In this document: positions 1,458 to 11,241 of the stretch, piece by piece
Position numbering within the stretch: position 1 is the stretch's first letter
Layout of the letters: each line of letters opens with the position of its first letter
Assembly (NCBI RefSeq): GCF_024223415.1
Contig: NZ_CP100504.1
Source of the DNA: Escherichia coli
Lineage (GTDB): Bacteria; Pseudomonadota; Gammaproteobacteria; Enterobacterales; Enterobacteriaceae
DNA: 63,428 nt
Reading direction: 5' to 3' (one strand)
Program-made: the position numbers and the translations under genes
The notes under the pieces: generated by a model
What the model saw: the letters and a program-made list of their open reading frames with translations, nothing else
Database searches by the model: none
Told to the model about the DNA's origin: nothing

Positions 1458-1495
1458 CACGCTCGTAAGCGGCCCTGACGGCCCGCTAACGCGGA
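1458..1495. repeat. ~32-bp direct repeat, left copy, flanking the TA module
   Basis: cacgctcgtaagcggccctgacggcccgcta recurs at 2627-2670 as ctcgctcgtaagcggccctgaaggctcgctta. Confidence 0.7.
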
Positions 1496-1926
1496 GATAC
1501 GCCCCGACTTCGGGTAAACCCTCGTCGGGACCACTCCGACCGCGCACAGAAGCTCTCTCATGGCTGAAAACGGGTATGGTCTGGCAGGGCAAGGGATGGG
1601 TAAGGTGAAATCTATCAATCAGTACCGGCTTACGCCGGGCTTCGGCGGTTTTACTCCGGTATCACATGTAACCACAGCGTGCCGCCTTACATGCCGCTGG
1701 CGCGGCATAAGCATATGTTGGTGGCTGTGTCTGAAAGGTTATATACTCTGCATAAAACCTGACAACACGCAGATTGCCAGGCAAATGAGCATTATGCATC
1801 CGGTTATCGCCTGCCTGTGAAACAATATCACCGGGGCGAATATCGATACTCTGACTCGTTATACCCATGCGTGCGGCATCAAAAAACCTGCAATTGCCCT
1901 TTATTGAATGAAAGGGGGAGTCAATT

Positions 1927-2190: not shown

Positions 2191-2479
2191 AATAGAATGG
2201 CGACCAGGTGCGATTGAGGATATAACGGCGTTGTTTGAATATCTGGCCGAGAATGCATCTCTTTGGGATGCAAGGAACGTGACAGAGCGTCTGATCACTG
2301 CAACCGATCGTCTGGCAGATTACCCCAGGCTGTATGAAACAGATGAACGCTATGGCGAAGGGGTTCGCCGTATTAGCTTACTTGGGCAGCATGTACTTTA
2401 TGAAGTGAATGATAAGGCCCGTCGTGTCAATATCCTGGCGGTTGTAGGCCAGCGTCAGAATCCCCGATTCATTCTTTGA
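2180..2479 (+). CDS. ParE/RelE-family toxin (plasmid stabilisation)
   Basis: 99-aa ORF with a ParE/RelE-like sequence pattern, translationally coupled to the upstream small ORF. Confidence 0.7.
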   Translation: MSYEIEWRPGAIEDITALFEYLAENASLWDARNVTERLITATDRLADYPRLYETDERYGEGVRRISLLGQHVLYEVNDKARRVNILAVVGQRQNPRFIL

Positions 2480-2626
2480 GTGCCCGGCTTGATGCGGGCT
2501 TACCAGGAATCACGGTTTGGGAGCCGCCTGGAGAAATGAAATTTTCCCATGCTAAGAGTATTGAGTTGAACTAGTAGAATTGACAATTCAAAAACTGAGA
2601 ACATGAAGAAACCCTATACGTCTGTC

Positions 2627-2670
2627 ATACTCGCTCGTAAGCGGCCCTGAAGGCTCGCTTACTCGACATC
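2627..2670. repeat. ~32-bp direct repeat, right copy, flanking the TA module
   Basis: Partner of the 1458-1495 repeat; lies just downstream of the ParE/RelE toxin gene. Confidence 0.7.
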
Positions 2671-2836
2671 CGTTAGTTATAACGTCAGAAGAATTATCGA
2701 GCTTTACTCAAGATCTTCTTCGTCAATCTCCAGCCATCCACGATAAGCTGACTCTGTATCTTTCACATCGTTTTGAGTCATATCAGCATTGCGTAGAAAA
2801 TTAAAAGCTGCCGCACAAAATTGATCTTCCAGGTAT

Positions 2837-3112
2837 TTGAAATACTCCAAACCTATATCCAGCCCCAGCTGCTTTGGCGAGAGAATATCAACTGAACTGG
2901 AGTTCGTCAGAAAAATCTGCCGGGCTGAAGGTGAAACTGAGGCTGATGACGATAAATTAGTGGATGAATTTCGTCGATTAGCTGAACACCCTGATGGTTC
3001 TGATCTTATTTATTATCCAAGGGATGACCGTGAGGACAGTCATGAAGGTATCGTAAAAGAAGTGAAGGAATGGCGAGCCAAAAACGGCAAGCCGGGGTTT
3101 AAACAGGGCTGA
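2837..3112 (+). CDS. colicin/pyocin DNase-type immunity protein (Im family), orphan
   Basis: C-terminal two thirds resemble Im2/Im7/Im9 immunity proteins (HPDGSDLIYYP ... EWRAKNGKPGFKQG); N-terminus atypical; no nuclease colicin gene in the window. Confidence 0.6.
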   Translation: MKYSKPISSPSCFGERISTELEFVRKICRAEGETEADDDKLVDEFRRLAEHPDGSDLIYYPRDDREDSHEGIVKEVKEWRAKNGKPGFKQG

Positions 3113-3164
3113 GGATCTTTGCTAAAGGATTAGCTGAAAATATGGATACCAGCTGTTCACTTCC

Positions 3165-3186
3165 AGAGCGGGCTGTTGCCCGCTCT
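3165..3186. terminator. stem-loop between convergent imm and MFS genes
   Basis: Perfect inverted repeat agagcgggc-tgtt-gcccgctct lying between the imm stop (3112) and the MFS stop (3190). Confidence 0.5.
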
Positions 3187-3189
3187 GCG

Positions 3190-4422
3190 TCATGTTGCCG
3201 CCAGCGGGCGACAGATCGCCCGCAGGGCGACGGCGCTGCACAGCGGAAACAGCGCCAGCAGAAGCCAGGGATAAACCGCCTGCGGCGACGGAATGAGCGC
3301 CTGGTCAAGTAAATGACCGAGCAGTAAATTCCCGGCTAACACCGCGCACCCTCCTGCGGTGGCGAGCGCTCCGTAGTGGGCGCCCAGCGTCGACTCCTCG
3401 GCGAACAGCGGGATCAGATCCTTGGCTGCGGGCACTAACAGCATCTGGCCGAGGGTGAGCAGCGTGACAAAACCAGCCGCCGGCATTAACCGCAGCCAAC
3501 TTTCGGCGGGTGGGGCGGCGGCGAATAACGCCACGCTGGCAAAGGAAGCCGACAGCAGCAGAAAGCCCACCGGCAGGATGCGCACGGCGCCCATTCGCCG
3601 GGCGAAGCGGGCGAGAGGGAGCTGGAGGGTGATAATCAACAGCGAGGCCAGCATAAAGAGCGGCGCCAGATCCTGCTCGCGGCCGCCGGAACGTTGGATC
3701 TCCACCGGCAGAGCGAGGTAGAGTTGGTTGTAGCTCAACAGCCATGAGCTGTAGGCGAGAATAAACGCGACAAAGCGCGGCTGGCGCAAAGGCGTCCACC
3801 ATGGGACTCGTCTGCGCGTTGTTGTCGTGTGCCCGTCGGCGGGCAGACCGAAAAAGAGCACCGCCAGCGCCAGAAGAAATATTCCCGCGCCGGCGAGGGC
3901 GATATGTCGAAAGCCGATCCCGCTCAGCACGCCTCCGGCCACCGGGCCGATCACCGCTCCCAGTTCACCGCATACCGCAAACAGCGCAAACCACTCGGCG
4001 CGGCTGCGTTTCCCGTTGGCCTGGCTGTGGGTACCGGCCCGCGCCAGCAGGGCCTCTATCGACGGGGAGAACAGGGCGCCGCCGACGCCGGTCAGGCAGG
4101 CGCCAAGGATAATGGCCCACAGCGACGCCCCGCACGCCAGCAGGAGAAAACCGGCGACGCGAACGACGCAGCCGGCGAGAATGATCGCCTTAGCGCCATA
4201 GCGGTCGGCCAGCGTCCCGCCGAGGATAAACATCCCCTGTTGGGAGAAGGTACGCAGCCCGAGGATCAGGCCGATAAGTCCGCCTGAGAGCAGCATGTCG
4301 TCGCGCAGGAAGAGGGCGAGGAAAGGTACGACCGCGTAAAAGCCAATATTAAAAACGAACTGGCTTCCCAGTAACACCGGAGGCCAGAGGGTTGCCGCAG
4401 GGCGCAGGGAGAAAAGAGGCAT
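3190..4422 (-). CDS. eitD: MFS transporter, EitD-like
   Basis: Multi-pass membrane protein; likely start is the internal Met (MPLFSL) 12 nt after the upstream ATPase stop; last gene of a four-gene operon in eitABCD order. Confidence 0.55.
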   Translation of the reverse strand: MPLFSLRPAATLWPPVLLGSQFVFNIGFYAVVPFLALFLRDDMLLSGGLIGLILGLRTFSQQGMFILGGTLADRYGAKAIILAGCVVRVAGFLLLACGASLWAIILGACLTGVGGALFSPSIEALLARAGTHSQANGKRSRAEWFALFAVCGELGAVIGPVAGGVLSGIGFRHIALAGAGIFLLALAVLFFGLPADGHTTTTRRRVPWWTPLRQPRFVAFILAYSSWLLSYNQLYLALPVEIQRSGGREQDLAPLFMLASLLIITLQLPLARFARRMGAVRILPVGFLLLSASFASVALFAAAPPAESWLRLMPAAGFVTLLTLGQMLLVPAAKDLIPLFAEESTLGAHYGALATAGGCAVLAGNLLLGHLLDQALIPSPQAVYPWLLLALFPLCSAVALRAICRPLAAT

Positions 4423-4433
4423 ATCCGCCCAAC

Positions 4434-5198
4434 CTAAACGATGAAATGAATGTGCTTTTTGCCGTGGTAAGGGGAGATCTCGATTTTGGTTTTCACCCGG
4501 AAAACGTCCCACAGCAGCGCTTCGGACAAAATCTCCTCCGGCGTCCCGCTGGCGAGGATCTGCCCCTGCTGCATCACGATCAGCGAATCGCAGAACATCG
4601 CGGCATGGTTAAGATCGTGAATGGCCACAATGCTGGTTACCGGCAGCTCGCTGATCAACTGCATTAACTGCATCTGATGGTGTATATCCAGATGGTTGGT
4701 CGGCTCATCCAGCAGGATTTCGCTCGGGCTCTGCGCCAGCGCGCGGGCGATATGCACCCGCTGCCGCTCGCCGCCGGAGAGGCTTAACCATCCCTGTTCG
4801 CTTTTCTCCAGCATAGCTACCCGCTGCAGCGCGGCGGCAATCGCTTCGTCATCCTGAGCGCTCCAGTTTGAGAACGGAGAGTGGTGGGGAATGCGTCCCA
4901 GGCGCACGACGTCGCGCACCCGCATATTGGCCTCGGTCATGCCGTGTTGCTCGACGCAAGCCACGCGGCGGGCGAGCTGCTTTTTCGCCATCCGGGCGAT
5001 ATCCTGGCCGTCGAGGGTGACGCGACCTGCATCCGGGCGGCGCAGGCCCGCCAGAACGCGCAGCAGCGAGGATTTGCCGCAGCCGTTGGGCCCCAGCAGT
5101 CCGACCGTTTCGCCGCGCGGCACCCGCAGCGAGACATTATTGACGATGACCTTTTTGCCTGCCTTCCAGGTGATATTTTCAGCGCAAATACTCATCAC
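4434..5198 (-). CDS. eitC: ABC transporter ATP-binding protein (iron-siderophore type), EitC-like
   Basis: 254 aa with Walker A GPNGCGKSS, ABC signature LSGGERQR and Walker B LLDEP. Confidence 0.6.
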   Translation of the reverse strand: MMSICAENITWKAGKKVIVNNVSLRVPRGETVGLLGPNGCGKSSLLRVLAGLRRPDAGRVTLDGQDIARMAKKQLARRVACVEQHGMTEANMRVRDVVRLGRIPHHSPFSNWSAQDDEAIAAALQRVAMLEKSEQGWLSLSGGERQRVHIARALAQSPSEILLDEPTNHLDIHHQMQLMQLISELPVTSIVAIHDLNHAAMFCDSLIVMQQGQILASGTPEEILSEALLWDVFRVKTKIEISPYHGKKHIHFIV

Positions 5199-6232
5199 TT
5201 ATTCCTTGAGCGGTAGATAATCACGGCAAAGAAAGGCACCCCAACCAGGGCGGTTACTACCCCAACGGGCAGACTTTGCGGGGCAATCAGCAGGCGCGAC
5301 GCAATGTCCGCCAGTACCATCAATATCGCCCCTGCCAGCGCGCTGGCGATCAGCAACGTTCGGTGCAGCGGGCCAAAGAAGAAACGCATCACGTGCGGCA
5401 CCACCAGGCCAACAAAGCCGATTGAGCCGGCCATGCTGACGATGGTGGCGGTGATCAGCGCCGCAGTGGTGAAGAGGATCAGGCGCACGCGCGGCACAGC
5501 AATCCCCAGCGAGGCGGCGGCATCGTCGCCGAAGGTGAACGCGTCCAGCGCCCGGGCATACCACAGGCAGACCGCCAGACCCGCGAGCACCACCACGATG
5601 ACCAACTGGAATTCGGGCCAGCGGACGCCGCTGAAGCTGCCCAGCAGCCAGAACATCACATCGCGCGCCTGCTGCGCGCTGGCGGTGGTGCTGATGGTAT
5701 AGGCCGTGATGGCGTTAAATAACTGCGAGGCGGCGACGCCCGCAAGAATCGTACGCTCATTGCCGCCGCGCGCGCCGTTAGTCAGCAAGGCGACAAAGGC
5801 GAAGGCGGCGAAGGCCCCGGCAAAGGCGCCTGCCGAGAGGGAAATTGCGCCAGAGCCAAGGCCCAGCACCACGATCGACACCGCGCCGGTGGAGGCCCCG
5901 GCGGAGACGCCGAGGACGTAGGGTTCGGCGAGGGCATTCTTCAGCAAGCTTTGCAGCACGACACCGCAGATAGCGAGGCCGGCGCCGCAGCAGGCGGCGA
6001 CCAGCGCGCGGCTGAGGCGGAAATCCCAGATAACGCTCTCATAGATATGGTTGAGCGGCTCAGCGGTTAAGCCGGTTCTGTTGCTGATAGCATAAAAGAC
6101 ATTCTGCAGCGGGATGGCCAGCTCGCCAACGCTGACGCCCACAGCGATCACCAGCGCCAGCACGATCGCTGCCAGTATACACCAGCCGGTGAGCAGTATG
6201 CTGCGGCACGTCTCAATCGCGCCGACGCTCAT
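5195..6232 (-). CDS. eitB: ABC transporter permease (FecCD family), EitB-like
   Basis: 345-aa polytopic membrane protein; stop and start overlap the flanking operon genes. Confidence 0.6.
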   Translation of the reverse strand: MSVGAIETCRSILLTGWCILAAIVLALVIAVGVSVGELAIPLQNVFYAISNRTGLTAEPLNHIYESVIWDFRLSRALVAACCGAGLAICGVVLQSLLKNALAEPYVLGVSAGASTGAVSIVVLGLGSGAISLSAGAFAGAFAAFAFVALLTNGARGGNERTILAGVAASQLFNAITAYTISTTASAQQARDVMFWLLGSFSGVRWPEFQLVIVVVLAGLAVCLWYARALDAFTFGDDAAASLGIAVPRVRLILFTTAALITATIVSMAGSIGFVGLVVPHVMRFFFGPLHRTLLIASALAGAILMVLADIASRLLIAPQSLPVGVVTALVGVPFFAVIIYRSRNK

Positions 6233-7230
6233 CAGTTCAGCCCCATTTTTCTCAGCTGCTCGCCCACCTGCTCCGCGCCGTAAAGCGTGCGAATGGTCGG
6301 ATTCATCGCCTGACCGTCCATGACCACGATATGGCCTTTTTTCACCGCCTCCAGCTGGCTGACGGCGGGATCGCTTTTGAGGAATTTGATCTTCTCCTCG
6401 GCTTTATCCAGCGCCCAGCGGTTACGATCCAGGCTGGCGACCACGATCACATCCGGGTTGGCGGCAATAATGCTCTCCCAGCTCACCGTGGGCCACTCGG
6501 TTTCGGAGGTAATCGCATTATGTCCGCCCAGCACGCTGGCGATAAATCCGGAGGCGCTGTTTTTGCCGCCGACATAGGCATCGGCCGAAGGTGAGGCGCT
6601 GGAGAACCAGAAGACGAAGGAGAGATCCTTTTTGCTTTTACCAAACTCCTGGCGCAGGTCGGCTTCACGTTTTTTGAAATCGGCAATCAGCGCCTGACCA
6701 CGATCTTCGACGTTGAAAATGCGGGAAAAATCGCTAATTTCCTGATACAGCCAGGTCATATCCCACAGCTTTTGCCGGCTGCCGTACATATCGCCGGTGG
6801 CCTTTTTGGTGGCGCATACCCCCGGTGAGAGGTAGCTGTTCACGCCGACGGTGGCGAGATCTTCACGCCTGGCGACTTTGCTTTCCGGCCCCAGCAGCAG
6901 CGGCAACTGGGCGGGAACGAAATCAGGATTTTGCGCCAGCACCGATTCCAGGCTCGGAATTTCCACCGTCAAGGTTTTAATCTTCGCGTTTTGCTCAGCC
7001 AGCTGCGGTAAAACGCTGTTCGGCCAGAAGGCGCTGGCGACCACCTGCTTTTGCAGCCCGAGCAGCAGCAGAATTTCGACCGTATTTTGCCCCAGCGCGA
7101 CCACGCGCTCCGGCGGCCGGGTGAAGGTCTCCTGATAGCCGCAGTTTTCAATCGTCAGGGGGTAGGTTGTTGCCAGCGCGGAACTGACGGCGGTGAACAT
7201 CAAGCCTAACGCGCAAAGGATCTTCTTCAT
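6232..7230 (-). CDS. eitA: periplasmic substrate-binding protein, EitA-like
   Basis: 332 aa with an N-terminal signal peptide (MKKILCALGLMFTAVSSALA); first gene of the operon. Confidence 0.6.
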   Translation of the reverse strand: MKKILCALGLMFTAVSSALATTYPLTIENCGYQETFTRPPERVVALGQNTVEILLLLGLQKQVVASAFWPNSVLPQLAEQNAKIKTLTVEIPSLESVLAQNPDFVPAQLPLLLGPESKVARREDLATVGVNSYLSPGVCATKKATGDMYGSRQKLWDMTWLYQEISDFSRIFNVEDRGQALIADFKKREADLRQEFGKSKKDLSFVFWFSSASPSADAYVGGKNSASGFIASVLGGHNAITSETEWPTVSWESIIAANPDVIVVASLDRNRWALDKAEEKIKFLKSDPAVSQLEAVKKGHIVVMDGQAMNPTIRTLYGAEQVGEQLRKMGLN

Positions 7231-7283
7231 TAAACGCTATCCTTGTAAACAGGCGAGTGGATGACCAGCAAATGGGAGTAATG

Positions 7284-7304
7284 CAAATGAAACTCATTAT
7301 TATC
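7284..7304 (-). promoter_or_regulatory. Fur-box-like sequence upstream of the eit-like operon
   Basis: Minus strand reads gataataatgagtttcatt about 55 bp upstream of the binding-protein start; partial match to the Fur consensus GATAATGATAATCATTATC. Confidence 0.3.
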
Positions 7305-7382
7305 GCGGGGTTTTATACAATGCCATATTTACAGTGTCAATGTGTTCTTGCCCCCTTATTTCCAGACAGGGGTTGTATCTTA

Positions 7383-7535
7383 AGTTAATGTTACCCGCTG
7401 ACGTCGATATTCTCGCGGAGAGCGATAACCCAACGCACTGTGCGGATGGTTTTCATTGTAATGTTCGATCGCCACTGCAAGATTATGCAATGCCGTTCTT
7501 ACATTCGGTTTCGGCATGAACGCGATGTAGTCTTC
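7383..7535 (-). mobile_element. IS transposase C-terminal remnant (DDE integrase core end)
   Basis: Minus-strand frame reads ...[46 protein letters not shown], typical of the C-terminus of IS3-family-like transposases; no upstream part present. Confidence 0.45.
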
Positions 7536-7587
7536 CTTGGGGTCCGCTTGGAAAACGGAAAATATCCCACGCTAAGACTATTTTCTA

Positions 7588-7790
7588 TACAGTAACAGTT
7601 TGCTGTTTCGCTCTAACTCTCAGAATTGTTTGCCGTGTGGTTCGGAATTCCCTGGCAATAGCACTTATACTTGCCCCAGACTTAATGCGTTCGAGTACCT
7701 TCTGTTTTTGTTCTTCATTTAATACCGGTGGGCGACCAAAACGTTTTCCTGCATCCCGTGCTCTTGCTATCCCTGAATAAGTTCGTTCAA
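7588..7790 (-). pseudogene. serine recombinase (resolvase/invertase) C-terminal remnant
   Basis: Minus-strand frame reads [43 protein letters not shown]... (HTH tail of resolvase/Hin-like proteins); upstream part is in another frame and degenerate. Confidence 0.4.
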
Positions 7791-8031
7791 GTAAAAGATC
7801 TCGTTCAAATTCAGCGACCGCTGAAATCTGGTGTTCTCGGTGTTTCTGTGACTGGTGGCAATATCGCGCTCCGGGCTGGAAAACAACCCATCAAAAACGT
7901 TATTGCCAGACATTGCGAACTCACCAGGTTTGATTATTGGTACTGTTTTTTTATAAGTGCCGTGAAATAATTTCATAATAACGACACTGTATTTATTTTA
8001 TGTAATCATTGCTAATGAAATAACTTGATTA

Positions 8032-8070
8032 AGTTCCCTTTATCCAGCCTGATAGTGGATAAAGGGAACT
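8032..8070. terminator. 14-bp perfect inverted repeat downstream of parR
   Basis: agttccctttatcc-(11 nt)-ggataaagggaact just 3' of the parR stop on the minus strand; terminator or recombination-site remnant. Confidence 0.45.
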
Positions 8071-8084
8071 CAATAATAATTGAA

Positions 8085-8438
8085 TTAATTTATTAGCTTC
8101 ATCGCATTTTTTTTGGTCTCTTCATCACTTTTTTGCTCTTGTTGTGAAGAGGATTGAGTGACTATTGAAGAATTAAAATCGGCCATCTCTTTTGGAAATA
8201 GCGATCTCAATATATTCACGATATCTGAAAATGTGGTTTCTTTCGTCAGCAATTCACATAAAAGGAAAGGGGCCCTGGGATCTTGTCTGTATAAGGCCAG
8301 ACCTGCCGTCAGTGCAGCCCGGTTAAGGCGGCTGCGTTCCCCTTGCGGGATACTGTCCAGTGTATCACAAACAATTTTATCTGTTTGATTTACATCTGGA
8401 TTTAGCTTAAAGGCAATGGTTCTGCGCTTGTCCATCAT
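8085..8438 (-). CDS. parR: partition protein ParR (StbB), centromere-binding adaptor
   Basis: 117-aa product matching R1 ParR ([43 protein letters not shown]...). Confidence 0.9.
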   Translation of the reverse strand: MMDKRRTIAFKLNPDVNQTDKIVCDTLDSIPQGERSRLNRAALTAGLALYRQDPRAPFLLCELLTKETTFSDIVNILRSLFPKEMADFNSSIVTQSSSQQEQKSDEETKKNAMKLIN

Positions 8439-9400
8439 TAATTACCTATGAGATACATACCGTTAACTAAATCATATTGAGAGTTATTGGTTTTAAAAAA
8501 ACGTTCATCACGAATCTGTGTGTGTTTTTTTACTGCATCGCATATTAATTCTGCGCCACCACCTATAACCATAACATGAGTATAACCAGAAAATTCATTG
8601 AGTGTATTTAATACACGTTGCTCAAGTTTACGAAGTGCTTCATTCATTGCTTCGGTGACTATTGATATTTTGTTCTCATCATTAATTCGTTGCTTCAGAT
8701 AGTTATTATCTTTTCTGTGAATAATTATATCGTCAGCAAGATAGCTACTTCCTTTTGTTCTCGCAAGAGAAAGGGCATCTTTTACTGCAGATGTGACCAG
8801 AGATACACCAAGAGATGAGTCTCCGTATATTTTACTGATCCCCGATAATTTCCCCATTACCTGAGAAATATCTAATGTGGTGCCCCCGAGATCTATAATT
8901 AATAAAGAATCTAACTCATCCAGTTCTTGTAGAACTTCATAACCTGCCGGTATAGATTCAGGCATGACTTTTACATCTTTTATTGTGAATGTATCCCCAC
9001 CATTTAATGTAATTTTTTTCCGGAAGTTTGCTTTCTTACGCTCAATATTTTCCGTATTGGGTTGGTTATTCCTGTCGTAATACTCTGTCAGAGGAAGTGT
9101 GCAAACAATATCCACTTCGCTTACCGGCAGACCACTGGTCAGTAAGGCGTGGTGCACCGCAACGACATTAACGTCGCTGTATTGCCATGCGATATTGGTT
9201 GTGACTACAGCATCCGGGCTGATTGGATCAAATGAATACTGTTCGCTGTTCAGTGTGTAGTTAAAGACCTTTTTATCACCAAAAGAAACTGCCCACTCGC
9301 GTTTGAAGCTGTTCGGGCTAATGTGCTGTTTAATTGTTCCGTCGCTTTCCTGCCACTGTAGTTTGATGTTTGTTGAACCGTCATCAATGAATACCAACAT
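8438..9400 (-). CDS. parM: actin-like partition ATPase ParM (StbA)
   Basis: 320-aa product matching R1 ParM ([21 protein letters not shown]...). Confidence 0.9.
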
Positions 9401-9565
9401 TTATAAAACTCCTTATGGTGTTTTTTTGGTGTTTGTTTGGGTGTTTTTTGGATTTTAAGTGGGTTTATTTGTCAAGTTTACCCCATTTTAACTATCAATC
9501 AATGATTATTTGTCTTGTTTTGGTGTTTTATTGGGTTTAGTGTGGGTTGTTTTTGGGTTTTGTTT
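9401..9565. other. parC centromere and promoter region
   Basis: G/T-rich iterated short repeats (ttttggtgttt, gtttgggtgtt and similar) on both sides of a promoter-like core directly upstream of parM. Confidence 0.6.
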
Positions 9566-9910
9566 GGCGGATAACAAAAGATGTCGCCGGGCTCCTCTTT
9601 TTACTGCGCCGGCTGACGCGGCGCGGCAGGAACGCTGCCTGTGGTCAGTGTCCCGCGTCCGGCCGGGCACGGGACGGGCGCTTTTACCGCTCCCGGCTGG
9701 CGTCGGTGACAGTGTACGCCAGCCCGTCGCCCTTTTCTGATGAGCGCCCTTCAAGCCGCTTTCGCGGCATAACCTTGCCGTCAGAAAGACGACGGCTGCG
9801 GTATTCCACGGTCGGCCTGACCCGTTACCGGGCGCGGTGAACAGCCCACAGGCAGCGGGGAACGGGCGCCACAGGGGCGCCCTCCCGATGCTCCTGTGAG
9901 GATAATTCCC

Positions 9911-10837
9911 ATGCCAAACTGGTGCTCGAATCGTATGTATTTTTCTGGTGAACCGGCACAGATCGCTGAGATTAAACGACTGGCCAACGGTGCAGTCACA
10001 CCGCTTTATCGCCGCGCCACAAATGAAGGTATTCAGCTGTTTCTGGCCGGAAGTGCCGGACTTCTGCAGACCACTGAAGATGTGCGGTTTGAACCATGCC
10101 CCGGACTGACGGCTGCCGGACGTGGTGTTGTATCTCCGGAGAATATAGCGTTCACCCGCTGGCTGACACACCTGCAGAACGGTGTACTGCTGGATGAGCA
10201 AAACTGCCTGATGCTGCATGAAATCTGGCTGCAGAGCGGTACTGGACAGCGTCGCTGGGAAGGATTACCGGACGATGTCAGGGATACCATCACCGCACTT
10301 TTCACCGCAAAAAGAGGTGACTGGTGTGGCTTCTGGAGTAACGAGGATGTATCGGTGTGGTGGAACCGTCTGTGTGACAATGTACTGCCGGAAAAAAACA
10401 TGCCGTTTGACCTGCTGACGGTTCTGCCGACCCGCCTTGATGTTGAAGTGAATGGCTTCAACGGTGGTGTTCTGAACGGTGTTCCTTCTGCATATCACTG
10501 GTATACAGAACGGTATGGTGTCAAGTGGCCTTGTGGTTATGACCTGAATATCAGCAGTCAGGGGGAAAACTTCATTCAGGTGGATTTCGACACGCCGTGG
10601 TGTCAGCCGGAAAGCGACGTTATTGCAGCATTAAGCCGCCGTTTCAGCTGCACGCTGGAGCACTGGTATGCCGAACAGGGCTGTGATTTCTGTGGCTGGC
10701 AGTTGTATGAGCGCGGAGAGCTCGTTGATGTGCTGTGGGGGGAGCTGGAATGGTCTTCCCCGACAGATGACGATGAGCTGCCGGAAGTCACCGGACCTGC
10801 GTGGATAGTCGACAATGTGGCGCATTATGGCGGATGA
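9911..10837 (+). CDS. conserved leading-region protein of unknown function (DUF1281-like by recollection)
   Basis: ATG at 9911 preceded by gagga; ~308-aa Cys/Trp-rich protein; identity is from memory of IncF leading-region ORFs only. Confidence 0.55.
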
Positions 10838-11241
10838 AGTATGACGGAGACGGGCGGGCAACCGCCCGTTTCTTTTCCGGTAAAGGATGTCGCCGCAGGC
10901 TCCGCTTTACCCGGCCATGCGGGGCATGGCCTTGTGGATTTTCAGTTATGTGGCCTCAGCGTCGTGTGCGGGCTGTGCCGTGCCTCCATCGTAGCCGGGC
11001 TTCTGCGGGCGGGTTGCAAGGTAAGGTGAACCGCTGCGGTCACCCGGTCCCTCCTTCCCGTCTGCCGTGATTTTCCGGTCGTTCACCCGCTCAGATTTCG
11101 CGGTCTCACCCTCCAACTCCCGCCAGCCGTGTGCGTCAGGCTGCGGCTTCCCTTGCGCCCTTGCAACCCTGCAGGCCCGGCAAAGATGGAGGCACGGCAC
11201 CGCCCGGTGTCGCGGAATATGTGAACAACGGAGGAAATCCC

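Follow-up and report, generated by a model that had tools for sequence, protein, structure and literature searches.

Stacked gene remnants between eitABCD and parMR on an Escherichia coli IncFII plasmid

We analysed a 63-kb stretch of Escherichia coli plasmid DNA (63,428 nucleotides, hereafter the window) and are confident that the interval between the iron-uptake operon eitABCD and parR consists of three stacked, non-functional gene remnants, left by successive rearrangements along the steps proposed below, and that none of the three has transposase, resolvase or anti-CRISPR activity today. In the order of their coordinates, the remnants are the tail of an IS2-group transposase, the tail of a TnpR-type serine resolvase and the beginning of an AcrIF11-family anti-CRISPR gene. 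Each of them was identified and delimited, the coordinates of the junctions on both sides of the cargo were determined, and one of these junctions is shared by many plasmids. The scar beside parR is in itself ordinary and already known: both the transposase and the resolvase fragments are pseudogenes in the PGAP annotation, and a flanking tnpA is mentioned in the literature. The significance of the results is small and mainly one of bookkeeping. For a widespread family of IncFII resistance plasmids, the eitABCD block is now delimited exactly (2897-7828), and it appears to have arrived ready-made from ColV-type virulence plasmids, not via transposition of the adjoining insertion sequence (IS).

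The window starts at the IncFII repA and is collinear with the approximately 70-kb pHK01/pEG356/pKF3-70 IncFII plasmid family. The gene order on the minus strand is eitD-eitC-eitB-eitA (3190-7230), the remnant interval, parR (8085-8438) and parM (8438-9400), and the remnants, parMR and eitABCD are all co-oriented. The first intact backbone gene is parR (stbB). On the opposite side of the interval, the eitA promoter region (7231-7342, minus strand) is the final native eit sequence ahead of the mobile DNA; it includes a Fur-box-like sequence (approximately 7280-7304, minus strand) and the published minus-strand -35 hexamer TTGACA, which is the reverse complement of 7335-7340. For pKF3-70, the Fur-regulated eitA promoter has been described with its Fur site, -35 and -10 (PMC2797631). 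The eit-par arrangement and the flanking 'tnpA' were likewise described in 2010-2012 (PMC2797631, PMC3251573), eit being placed 'downstream of the par region, flanked by tnpA' in one of these descriptions (PMC3251573).

The remnant adjoining the eitA promoter is the right end of an IS3-family (IS2-group) IS (7343-7538, minus strand). Its terminal repeat (TGTTCTTGCCCCCTTATTTCCAGACAGGGG...) extends from 7343 to approximately 7383, the transposase stop codon is at 7380-7382 (minus strand), and the final 52 codons of the transposase, to which the profile matches belong, occupy 7383-7538 (minus strand). The original prediction had recognized here the last ~50 codons of a DDE transposase, in good agreement with matches of the 52 codons to Pfam rve_3 (E 6.9e-9, profile positions 32-67 of 67), to NCBIfam NF006918 'IS2 transposase TnpB' (E 1.2e-19) and to positions 325-369 of 369 of the IS3-family profile NF033516. 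At the nucleotide level, homology to other IS copies covers exactly 7343-7538, with 96-99% identity to chromosomal IS3-family copies and 73% identity to IS2. A base-for-base alignment of the terminal repeat at 7343-7383 (TGTTCTTGCCCCCTTATTTCCAGACA..., starting with TG) was obtained both with the right end of IS2 and with the terminus of a full-length IS3-family relative. Since the alignments begin at the element terminus, position 7343, the right end of the IS is intact, and the loss amounts to approximately 1.1 kb. The surviving 196 bp, out of roughly 1.3 kb, lack the orfA/orfB frameshift, the DDE core and the other end of a complete IS; the frameshifted transposase is present in the full-length relative. 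No second IS end was found anywhere in the 63-kb window. The surviving end lies 2 bp from the -35 box of the eitA promoter. The PGAP label for the fragment is that of a pseudogene, 'integrase core domain-containing protein', 'missing N-terminus'.

A 38-bp terminal inverted repeat of the Tn3 family (GGGGTCCGCTTGGAAAACGGAAAATATCCCACGCTAAG, 7539-7576) abuts the IS breakpoint exactly and lies 8 bp from the stop codon of the second remnant. This remnant is the 3' part of a gene for a TnpR-type serine resolvase (7585-7828, minus strand), encoding residues 117-196 and the stop; the stop codon at 7585-7587 closes an uninterrupted 80-codon frame (7588-7828) that corresponds to the end of the E-helix and the HTH_7 domain (E 3.6e-11). 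A serine-recombinase C-terminal HTH had been predicted correctly, and this fragment, like the transposase tail, is a genuine, significant remnant; its description as frame-broken was wrong, as it forms one open frame that is truncated at the 5' end. Of the resolvase catalytic domain (PF00239) only the final 29 positions are left (116-144 of 145), and the N-terminal catalytic domain with the serine nucleophile is missing. An intact 196-aa recombinase is encoded by plasmid pTB-nb2, and its residues 117-196 recur in the remnant with 100% identity; the whole catalytic domain is present in the intact ColV recombinase (E 1.1e-38). PGAP labels the fragment as a pseudogene ('recombinase family protein, incomplete, missing N-terminus'), and some RefSeq records name it 'HTH domain-containing protein'.

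The intact context of the second remnant is found in ColV-type plasmids (pTB-nb2; pEND_Eco 12053-1), where the Tn3-type repeat is paired with an inverted copy alike at 30/38 positions. The pair delimits an 852-bp unit, which encloses an intact tnpR and a three-subsite res-like region. In pTB-nb2 the res region (TGTCCGAAA...TTTCGGACA subsites) is homologous to the res of a Tn3-family transposon. A complete transposon of this family, with tnpA and, divergent from it, a tnpR whose product is 86% identical to the recombinase, has ends that match the repeat in its inner half. Because the Tn3-type repeat is located exactly at the IS breakpoint and the recombinase and res are of the Tn3 family, the two remnants derive from two different elements. 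The window contains neither the partner repeat nor the cognate res site, which would fall past the 7828 break. At the ColV mini-element there is no 5-bp target duplication (the flanks are TCCTT and GCTAA), and with such different flanks a simple insertion into the IS is not demonstrated; the missing part of the IS was found beside the other Tn3-type repeat in no plasmid. One possibility for the 852-bp unit is that it serves as a mobilisable resolution cassette, with res x res recombination shuffling the DNA on its flanks.

Comparison with ColV-type plasmids also delimited the cargo. A travelling eit block, composed of the immunity gene, eitDCBA, the IS tail, the Tn3 repeat and tnpR (2897-7828), is common to these plasmids, with 98.6-99.7% identity over 4.9 kb and with the resolvase intact there. 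Window positions 2937-7828 are 99.67% identical to pTB-nb2; this match is bounded on the left by IS1, and other ColV plasmids match from 2897 on. Plasmids of the IncFII group without eit match the window up to 2896. The two limits together define the left junction, 2896/2897, which lies 42 bp into a colicin-type immunity gene and additionally truncates a 215-aa backbone gene. A circular permutation, suggested by toxin-antitoxin pairs to the left of the cargo and to the right of the ColV resolvase, was considered and rejected: the two pairs differ, and a shared 230-bp segment (window 1475-1708) is a piece of ordinary IncFII replicon that recurs in thousands of plasmids.

The original prediction had taken the interval for the scar of the mobile element that delivered the iron-uptake locus, in which case the transposase and resolvase tails would be the decayed end of one unit or composite transposon carrying eitABCD. 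Flanking tnpA was indeed proposed as a possible explanation of eit dissemination by Mellata et al. 2012 (PMC3251573), the eit promoter directly adjoins the IS end, which occupies the same position in all eit-bearing enterobacterial plasmids among the matches listed. Moreover, a native, non-mobile eit locus on the Pantoea dispersa megaplasmid p101_1 is 77% identical over window positions 3202-7340, and this homology stops at approximately 7340, 2-3 bp before the IS end. The IS may thus have taken part in an older capture of eitABCD, for which the Pantoea comparison is suggestive, not diagnostic; an end of homology at the IS is equally expected from any insertion beside a promoter. We nevertheless consider delivery by one transposon unlikely. 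The remnants come from unrelated element types with a Tn3-type terminal repeat between them, no partner end was found for either of them in the window, and the far-side junction falls inside the immunity gene. In addition, ColV plasmids share the block including both remnants, and the IncFII junction is at 7828/7838, not at the outer edge of the remnants. The inverted repeats or target-site duplications expected on the far side of the cargo did not materialize: a search of 2300-8100 returned no inverted or direct repeats and no target duplication flanking the cargo, so that neither the paired inverted ends nor the target duplication of a composite or unit transposon accompanies eitABCD. The sole other Tn3-type repeat is a solo 38-bp copy on the far side (2519-2556, plus strand), outside the shared block. 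It matches the repeat at 7539-7576 at 29/38 positions (the best chance match was 22-23/38 in five shuffled windows), and since the two are in direct orientation, they cannot be the paired ends of one transposon. The GC content is 57-68% across the eit genes (3300-7200) and 34-44% in 7200-9600, a contrast which supports a foreign origin of the eit genes themselves.

On the parR side, homology to the ColV block stops at 7828, and homology to the eit-free IncF backbone begins at 7838. The cargo-backbone junction (7828/7838) therefore has the resolvase tail on one side and, on the other, a backbone gene of the AcrIF11 family that has been truncated. The two break points are separated by a 9-bp filler (TGGTGTTCT, 7829-7837), which is a near-duplicate of the following 10 bp (CGGTGTTTCT) and, in a three-way alignment with the window, matches neither the ColV nor the intact IncF context. 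The transposase and recombinase remnants had been predicted to mark the cargo-backbone junction; the junction does fall inside 7383-8070, where it was expected, but neither remnant is on the boundary, both being inside the 2897-7828 block.

The third remnant is the 5' part of a gene for an AcrIF11-family anti-CRISPR ADP-ribosyltransferase (7838-7976, minus strand), of which the first 46 codons are left. In other IncF plasmids an intact 157-aa homologue is encoded directly after parR, and it matches NF052490 over its full length (E 1.2e-30, 107 bits; the cut-off of this model is 50 bits) and PDB 6KYF, AcrF11 (E 2e-11). The fragment in the window matches positions 1-40 of 142 of the same model with 22 bits, below the cut-off (E 2.1e-4). 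Pfam gave no match for either the intact 157-aa backbone protein or the 69-aa ORF described below, and the AcrIF11 identity came from the NCBIfam and PDB sequence searches only. The catalytic acidic residue of AcrIF11Pae1 is D115 (PMC11383003), which would correspond to the C-terminal EMxDE(H/Y)GT motif of the IncF homologue. This motif is encoded past codon 46, and hence it is absent from the remnant in the window.

From the AcrIF11-family start, a chimeric 69-aa ORF (7767-7976, minus strand) crosses the junction into the resolvase remnant, in a different frame. It is annotated as hypothetical protein WP_012881112.1 in some RefSeq records, and this 'hypothetical' annotation can be corrected to a chimaera of the start of an anti-CRISPR gene and a resolvase tail. 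The original prediction did not include the 38-bp Tn3-type repeat at 7539-7576, the AcrIF11-family remnant at 7838-7976 or the 69-aa chimeric ORF at 7767-7976.

The intact AcrIF11-family gene is present in at least 253 PLSDB plasmids, in the records of which it is annotated 'hypothetical', and other plasmids have it broken off at codon 38, 43, 46, 86 or 114. As a common IncF neighbour of parMR that has been truncated repeatedly, it is of possible interest to the field of plasmid anti-defence. AcrIF11 is widespread on plasmids (PMC11383003). We tentatively propose, giving the combination somewhat less than an even chance, that the gene found natively after parR in many IncF plasmids is predicted to encode an active AcrIF11-type anti-CRISPR enzyme, which would act on type I-F CRISPR-Cas through ADP-ribosylation of Csy1, that the locus would be a recurrent break point of the IncF variable region, and that the epidemic pHK01-type CTX-M plasmids may have traded anti-CRISPR protection for the eit block.

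The position of the junction also bears on another suggestion made originally, that the recombinase remnant could be what is left of a multimer-resolution gene; on this reading the gene was the plasmid's own and decayed in place beside par. Resolvase genes are frequently located near par loci, and the intact ColV homologue, with its three-subsite res and no adjoining tnpA, could resolve multimers there. However, IncF backbone homology begins only at 7838, the native gene after parR is the AcrIF11-family gene (in at least 253 plasmids), and the remnant has a Tn3-type repeat as its boundary and shows no difference from the ColV copy (100% identity). These observations make decay in place extremely improbable; the resolvase tail is better explained as part of the imported block.

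The same right junction was found in 74 PLSDB plasmids and 34 complete E. coli genomes, which is consistent with a single ancestral event. As to the spread of eit-bearing enterobacterial plasmids, 224 records altogether cover at least 80% of the query, and 215 eit-bearing plasmids were found in PLSDB at 95% identity or more. Positions 7311-7828 of the window are identical to pTB-nb2, and positions 7564-8251 are identical to pEG356. The identity to the ColV sequence over 7311-7828, together with 4 bp of the Tn3-type repeat that the window has retained (see below), indicates that it has an older or a re-converted version of the block.

Between the AcrIF11-family remnant and parR, a perfect inverted repeat had been noticed originally and given as 14 bp long. 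The repeat is real and longer: its perfect arms of 15 bp (8032-8046 and 8056-8070) are separated by a 9-nt loop (8032-8070 in total), and with one mismatch it extends to 19 bp (8028-8074). It starts 15 bp past the parR stop. A 101-nt stretch containing the hairpin folds with -30 kcal/mol (z = -7.1), and 0/200 shuffles fold as well. In the seven IncF par loci compared, the hairpin is nearly invariant and the downstream sequence differs; because it is kept whatever lies downstream, it belongs to the par module. The changes among the seven loci are one C-to-T that retains a G-U pair and one that lengthens the stem, and because the stem is nearly invariant, a covariation test yields no evidence. 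No T-tract follows the hairpin, and a promoter/terminator consensus scan, the counts of which were at chance level, calls no terminator there. An Rfam scan of 7000-9800 gave nothing meaningful; the match over the hairpin was to a plant miRNA, with 23 bits against a gathering score of 144. Most probably the inverted repeat serves the parMR transcript as a 3' hairpin or terminator; it has no connection with the transposase or the recombinase.

We also considered whether the interval has retained a function, as a small HTH DNA-binding protein, as a 69-aa AcrIF11 N-terminal peptide, or through parMR read-through that modulates eitABCD. All features are co-oriented with parMR and eitABCD, the junction region is unchanged in about 100 plasmids, and both the 69-aa ORF and the 'HTH domain-containing protein' are annotated in some RefSeq records. 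Against this, the HTH frame has no start codon (no ATG, GTG or TTG in it gives an ORF of at least 20 aa), the AcrIF11 fragment has no C-terminal catalytic motif, and between hairpin and ORF the consensus scan found no sigma-70-like promoter on the minus strand. That the junction region has stayed unchanged is accounted for by the recent clonal expansion of a single plasmid lineage (98.7-100% identity). A retained function therefore appears very improbable, and we return to the reading of the interval as a stack of non-functional remnants.

For the origin of these remnants we infer the following order of events and junction mechanism, an order that cannot be proved from extant sequences. First, an IS2-group element of the IS3 family would have settled with its right end 2 bp upstream of the -35 box of the eitA promoter. 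Second, a small tnpA-less Tn3-family element (38-bp inverted repeat, tnpR, res and 38-bp inverted repeat; 852 bp when intact) would have joined the IS, the join falling inside the IS transposase gene such that only the final 196 bp of the IS survived. Third, the assembly would have spread on ColV-type plasmids as a fixed unit composed of a colicin remnant, the immunity gene, eitDCBA, the IS tail and the mini-Tn3. Fourth, the ancestor of the pHK01/pEG356/pKF3-70 IncFII lineage may have gained the 4.9-kb piece by illegitimate recombination, with the right break at tnpR codon 116/117 and AcrIF11-family codon 46, where a 9-bp filler would have been left, and with the left break 42 bp into the immunity gene. 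Alternatively, an adjacent deletion mediated by an IS or a Tn could have made the junctions. No IncFII plasmid was identified as an 'empty site', with the two backbone break points joined. Through the rearrangement, the eitA promoter and the 3' hairpin of parMR seem to have been preserved, and the plasmid would have lost the anti-CRISPR gene as well as the resolvase and its res site.

Comparison with known systems places each part of the interval beside a described relative. The same remnants in the same order, with 98.7-98.8% identity over 7250-8100, form the eitABCD-par junction of pHK01, pEG356, pKF3-70 and pChi7122-2. The window differs from the pHK01-like plasmids in retaining 4 bp (AAAT, 7560-7563) of the Tn3-type repeat, which most of them have lost, and its eit block is nearer to the ColV version than theirs, with 16 differences in 4.9 kb as compared with about 40. 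The IS fragment shares with IS2 the terminal repeat from the first base (TG...) and a transposase C-terminus that matches the TnpB profile; at only about 73% nucleotide identity, however, it represents a different member of the IS2 group. The intact IncF gene resembles AcrIF11 (6KYF; NF052490) from end to end and has both the N-terminal FHG(S/T)Y motif and the C-terminal EMxDE(H/Y)GT motif, whereas the window has only 46 of the 157 codons. TIMEs are documented on enterobacterial plasmids, IncF plasmids included, where non-autonomous Tn3 derivatives are well known (PMC13367494). Such non-autonomous Tn3-family derivatives (TIMEs, IS101) and TnpR/res modules likewise have 38-bp GGGG...TAAG terminal repeats. 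Typical TIMEs are geneless, whereas the intact ColV element has tnpR and res but no tnpA, and of this arrangement the window retains one repeat and the HTH end only.

The 38-bp Tn3-type terminal inverted repeat that adjoins the tnpR remnant contains a 4-bp stretch, AAAT (window 7560-7563), that is kept in the window and in pTB-nb2 and is deleted in the pHK01-like plasmids examined. With AAAT, the repeat regains the canonical 38-bp length, and therefore the version carried by the window is probably the ancestral one. Several bases of the eitA promoter also differ between the window and the pHK01-like plasmids (7302-7304, 7309/7310 and 7318). These differences fall in or beside a Fur-box-like sequence and the -10 region and might alter the iron regulation of eitABCD.

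At the left edge of the eit block, the 'bacteriocin immunity' ORF (window 2837-3112) is a colicin-type immunity gene truncated at its 5' end, and its new TTG start comes from unrelated upstream sequence. Just upstream lies the 3' remnant (window 2557-2896) of a 215-aa backbone gene, which has no NCBIfam match and of which an intact copy is held by pE16EC1059-1.

Directly downstream of parR, many IncF plasmids carry a gene for an AcrIF11-family anti-CRISPR ADP-ribosyltransferase, labelled 'hypothetical' in the inspected records. The window keeps its 5' remnant (7838-7976), the gene was also located in three comparison plasmid loci, numbered in their own coordinates (L008 3666-4139, L009 3720-4139 and L020 1571-2044), and at least 253 PLSDB records contain 80% or more of it. 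Since the truncations found among other plasmids fall at several different codons (38, 43, 46, 86 and 114), breakage appears to recur here, where the variable region is bordered. On the downstream side of the gene, NZ_CP038858 carries a DUF4238 gene and ppl, an anti-phage gene.

Beside parC/parM, GC content reaches 69% in one patch (window 9601-9900). Past it lies a segment of about 1 kb encoding a 313-aa ORF (window 9897-10882), a counterpart of which was absent from both close relatives compared; an IS110-family element is inserted close to this position in CP056609.

ColV-type plasmids carry an 852-bp Tn3-family unit without tnpA (L007 9210-10061 and L017 13643-14494), in which two 38-bp IRs enclose tnpR and a three-subsite res region. 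No 5-bp target duplication surrounds the unit, which may act as a resolution cassette that can be mobilised. IncF variable regions also contain scattered Tn3-type 38-bp repeats, solo or paired (window 2519-2556; L016 9058-9095/9277-9314; L012 1040-1127; L001 4825-4862). In pEG356, such a repeat adjoins the start of homology to the window (window-equivalent 3112), and in pE16EC1059-1 two repeats about 257 bp apart form a pair that looks like a TIME.
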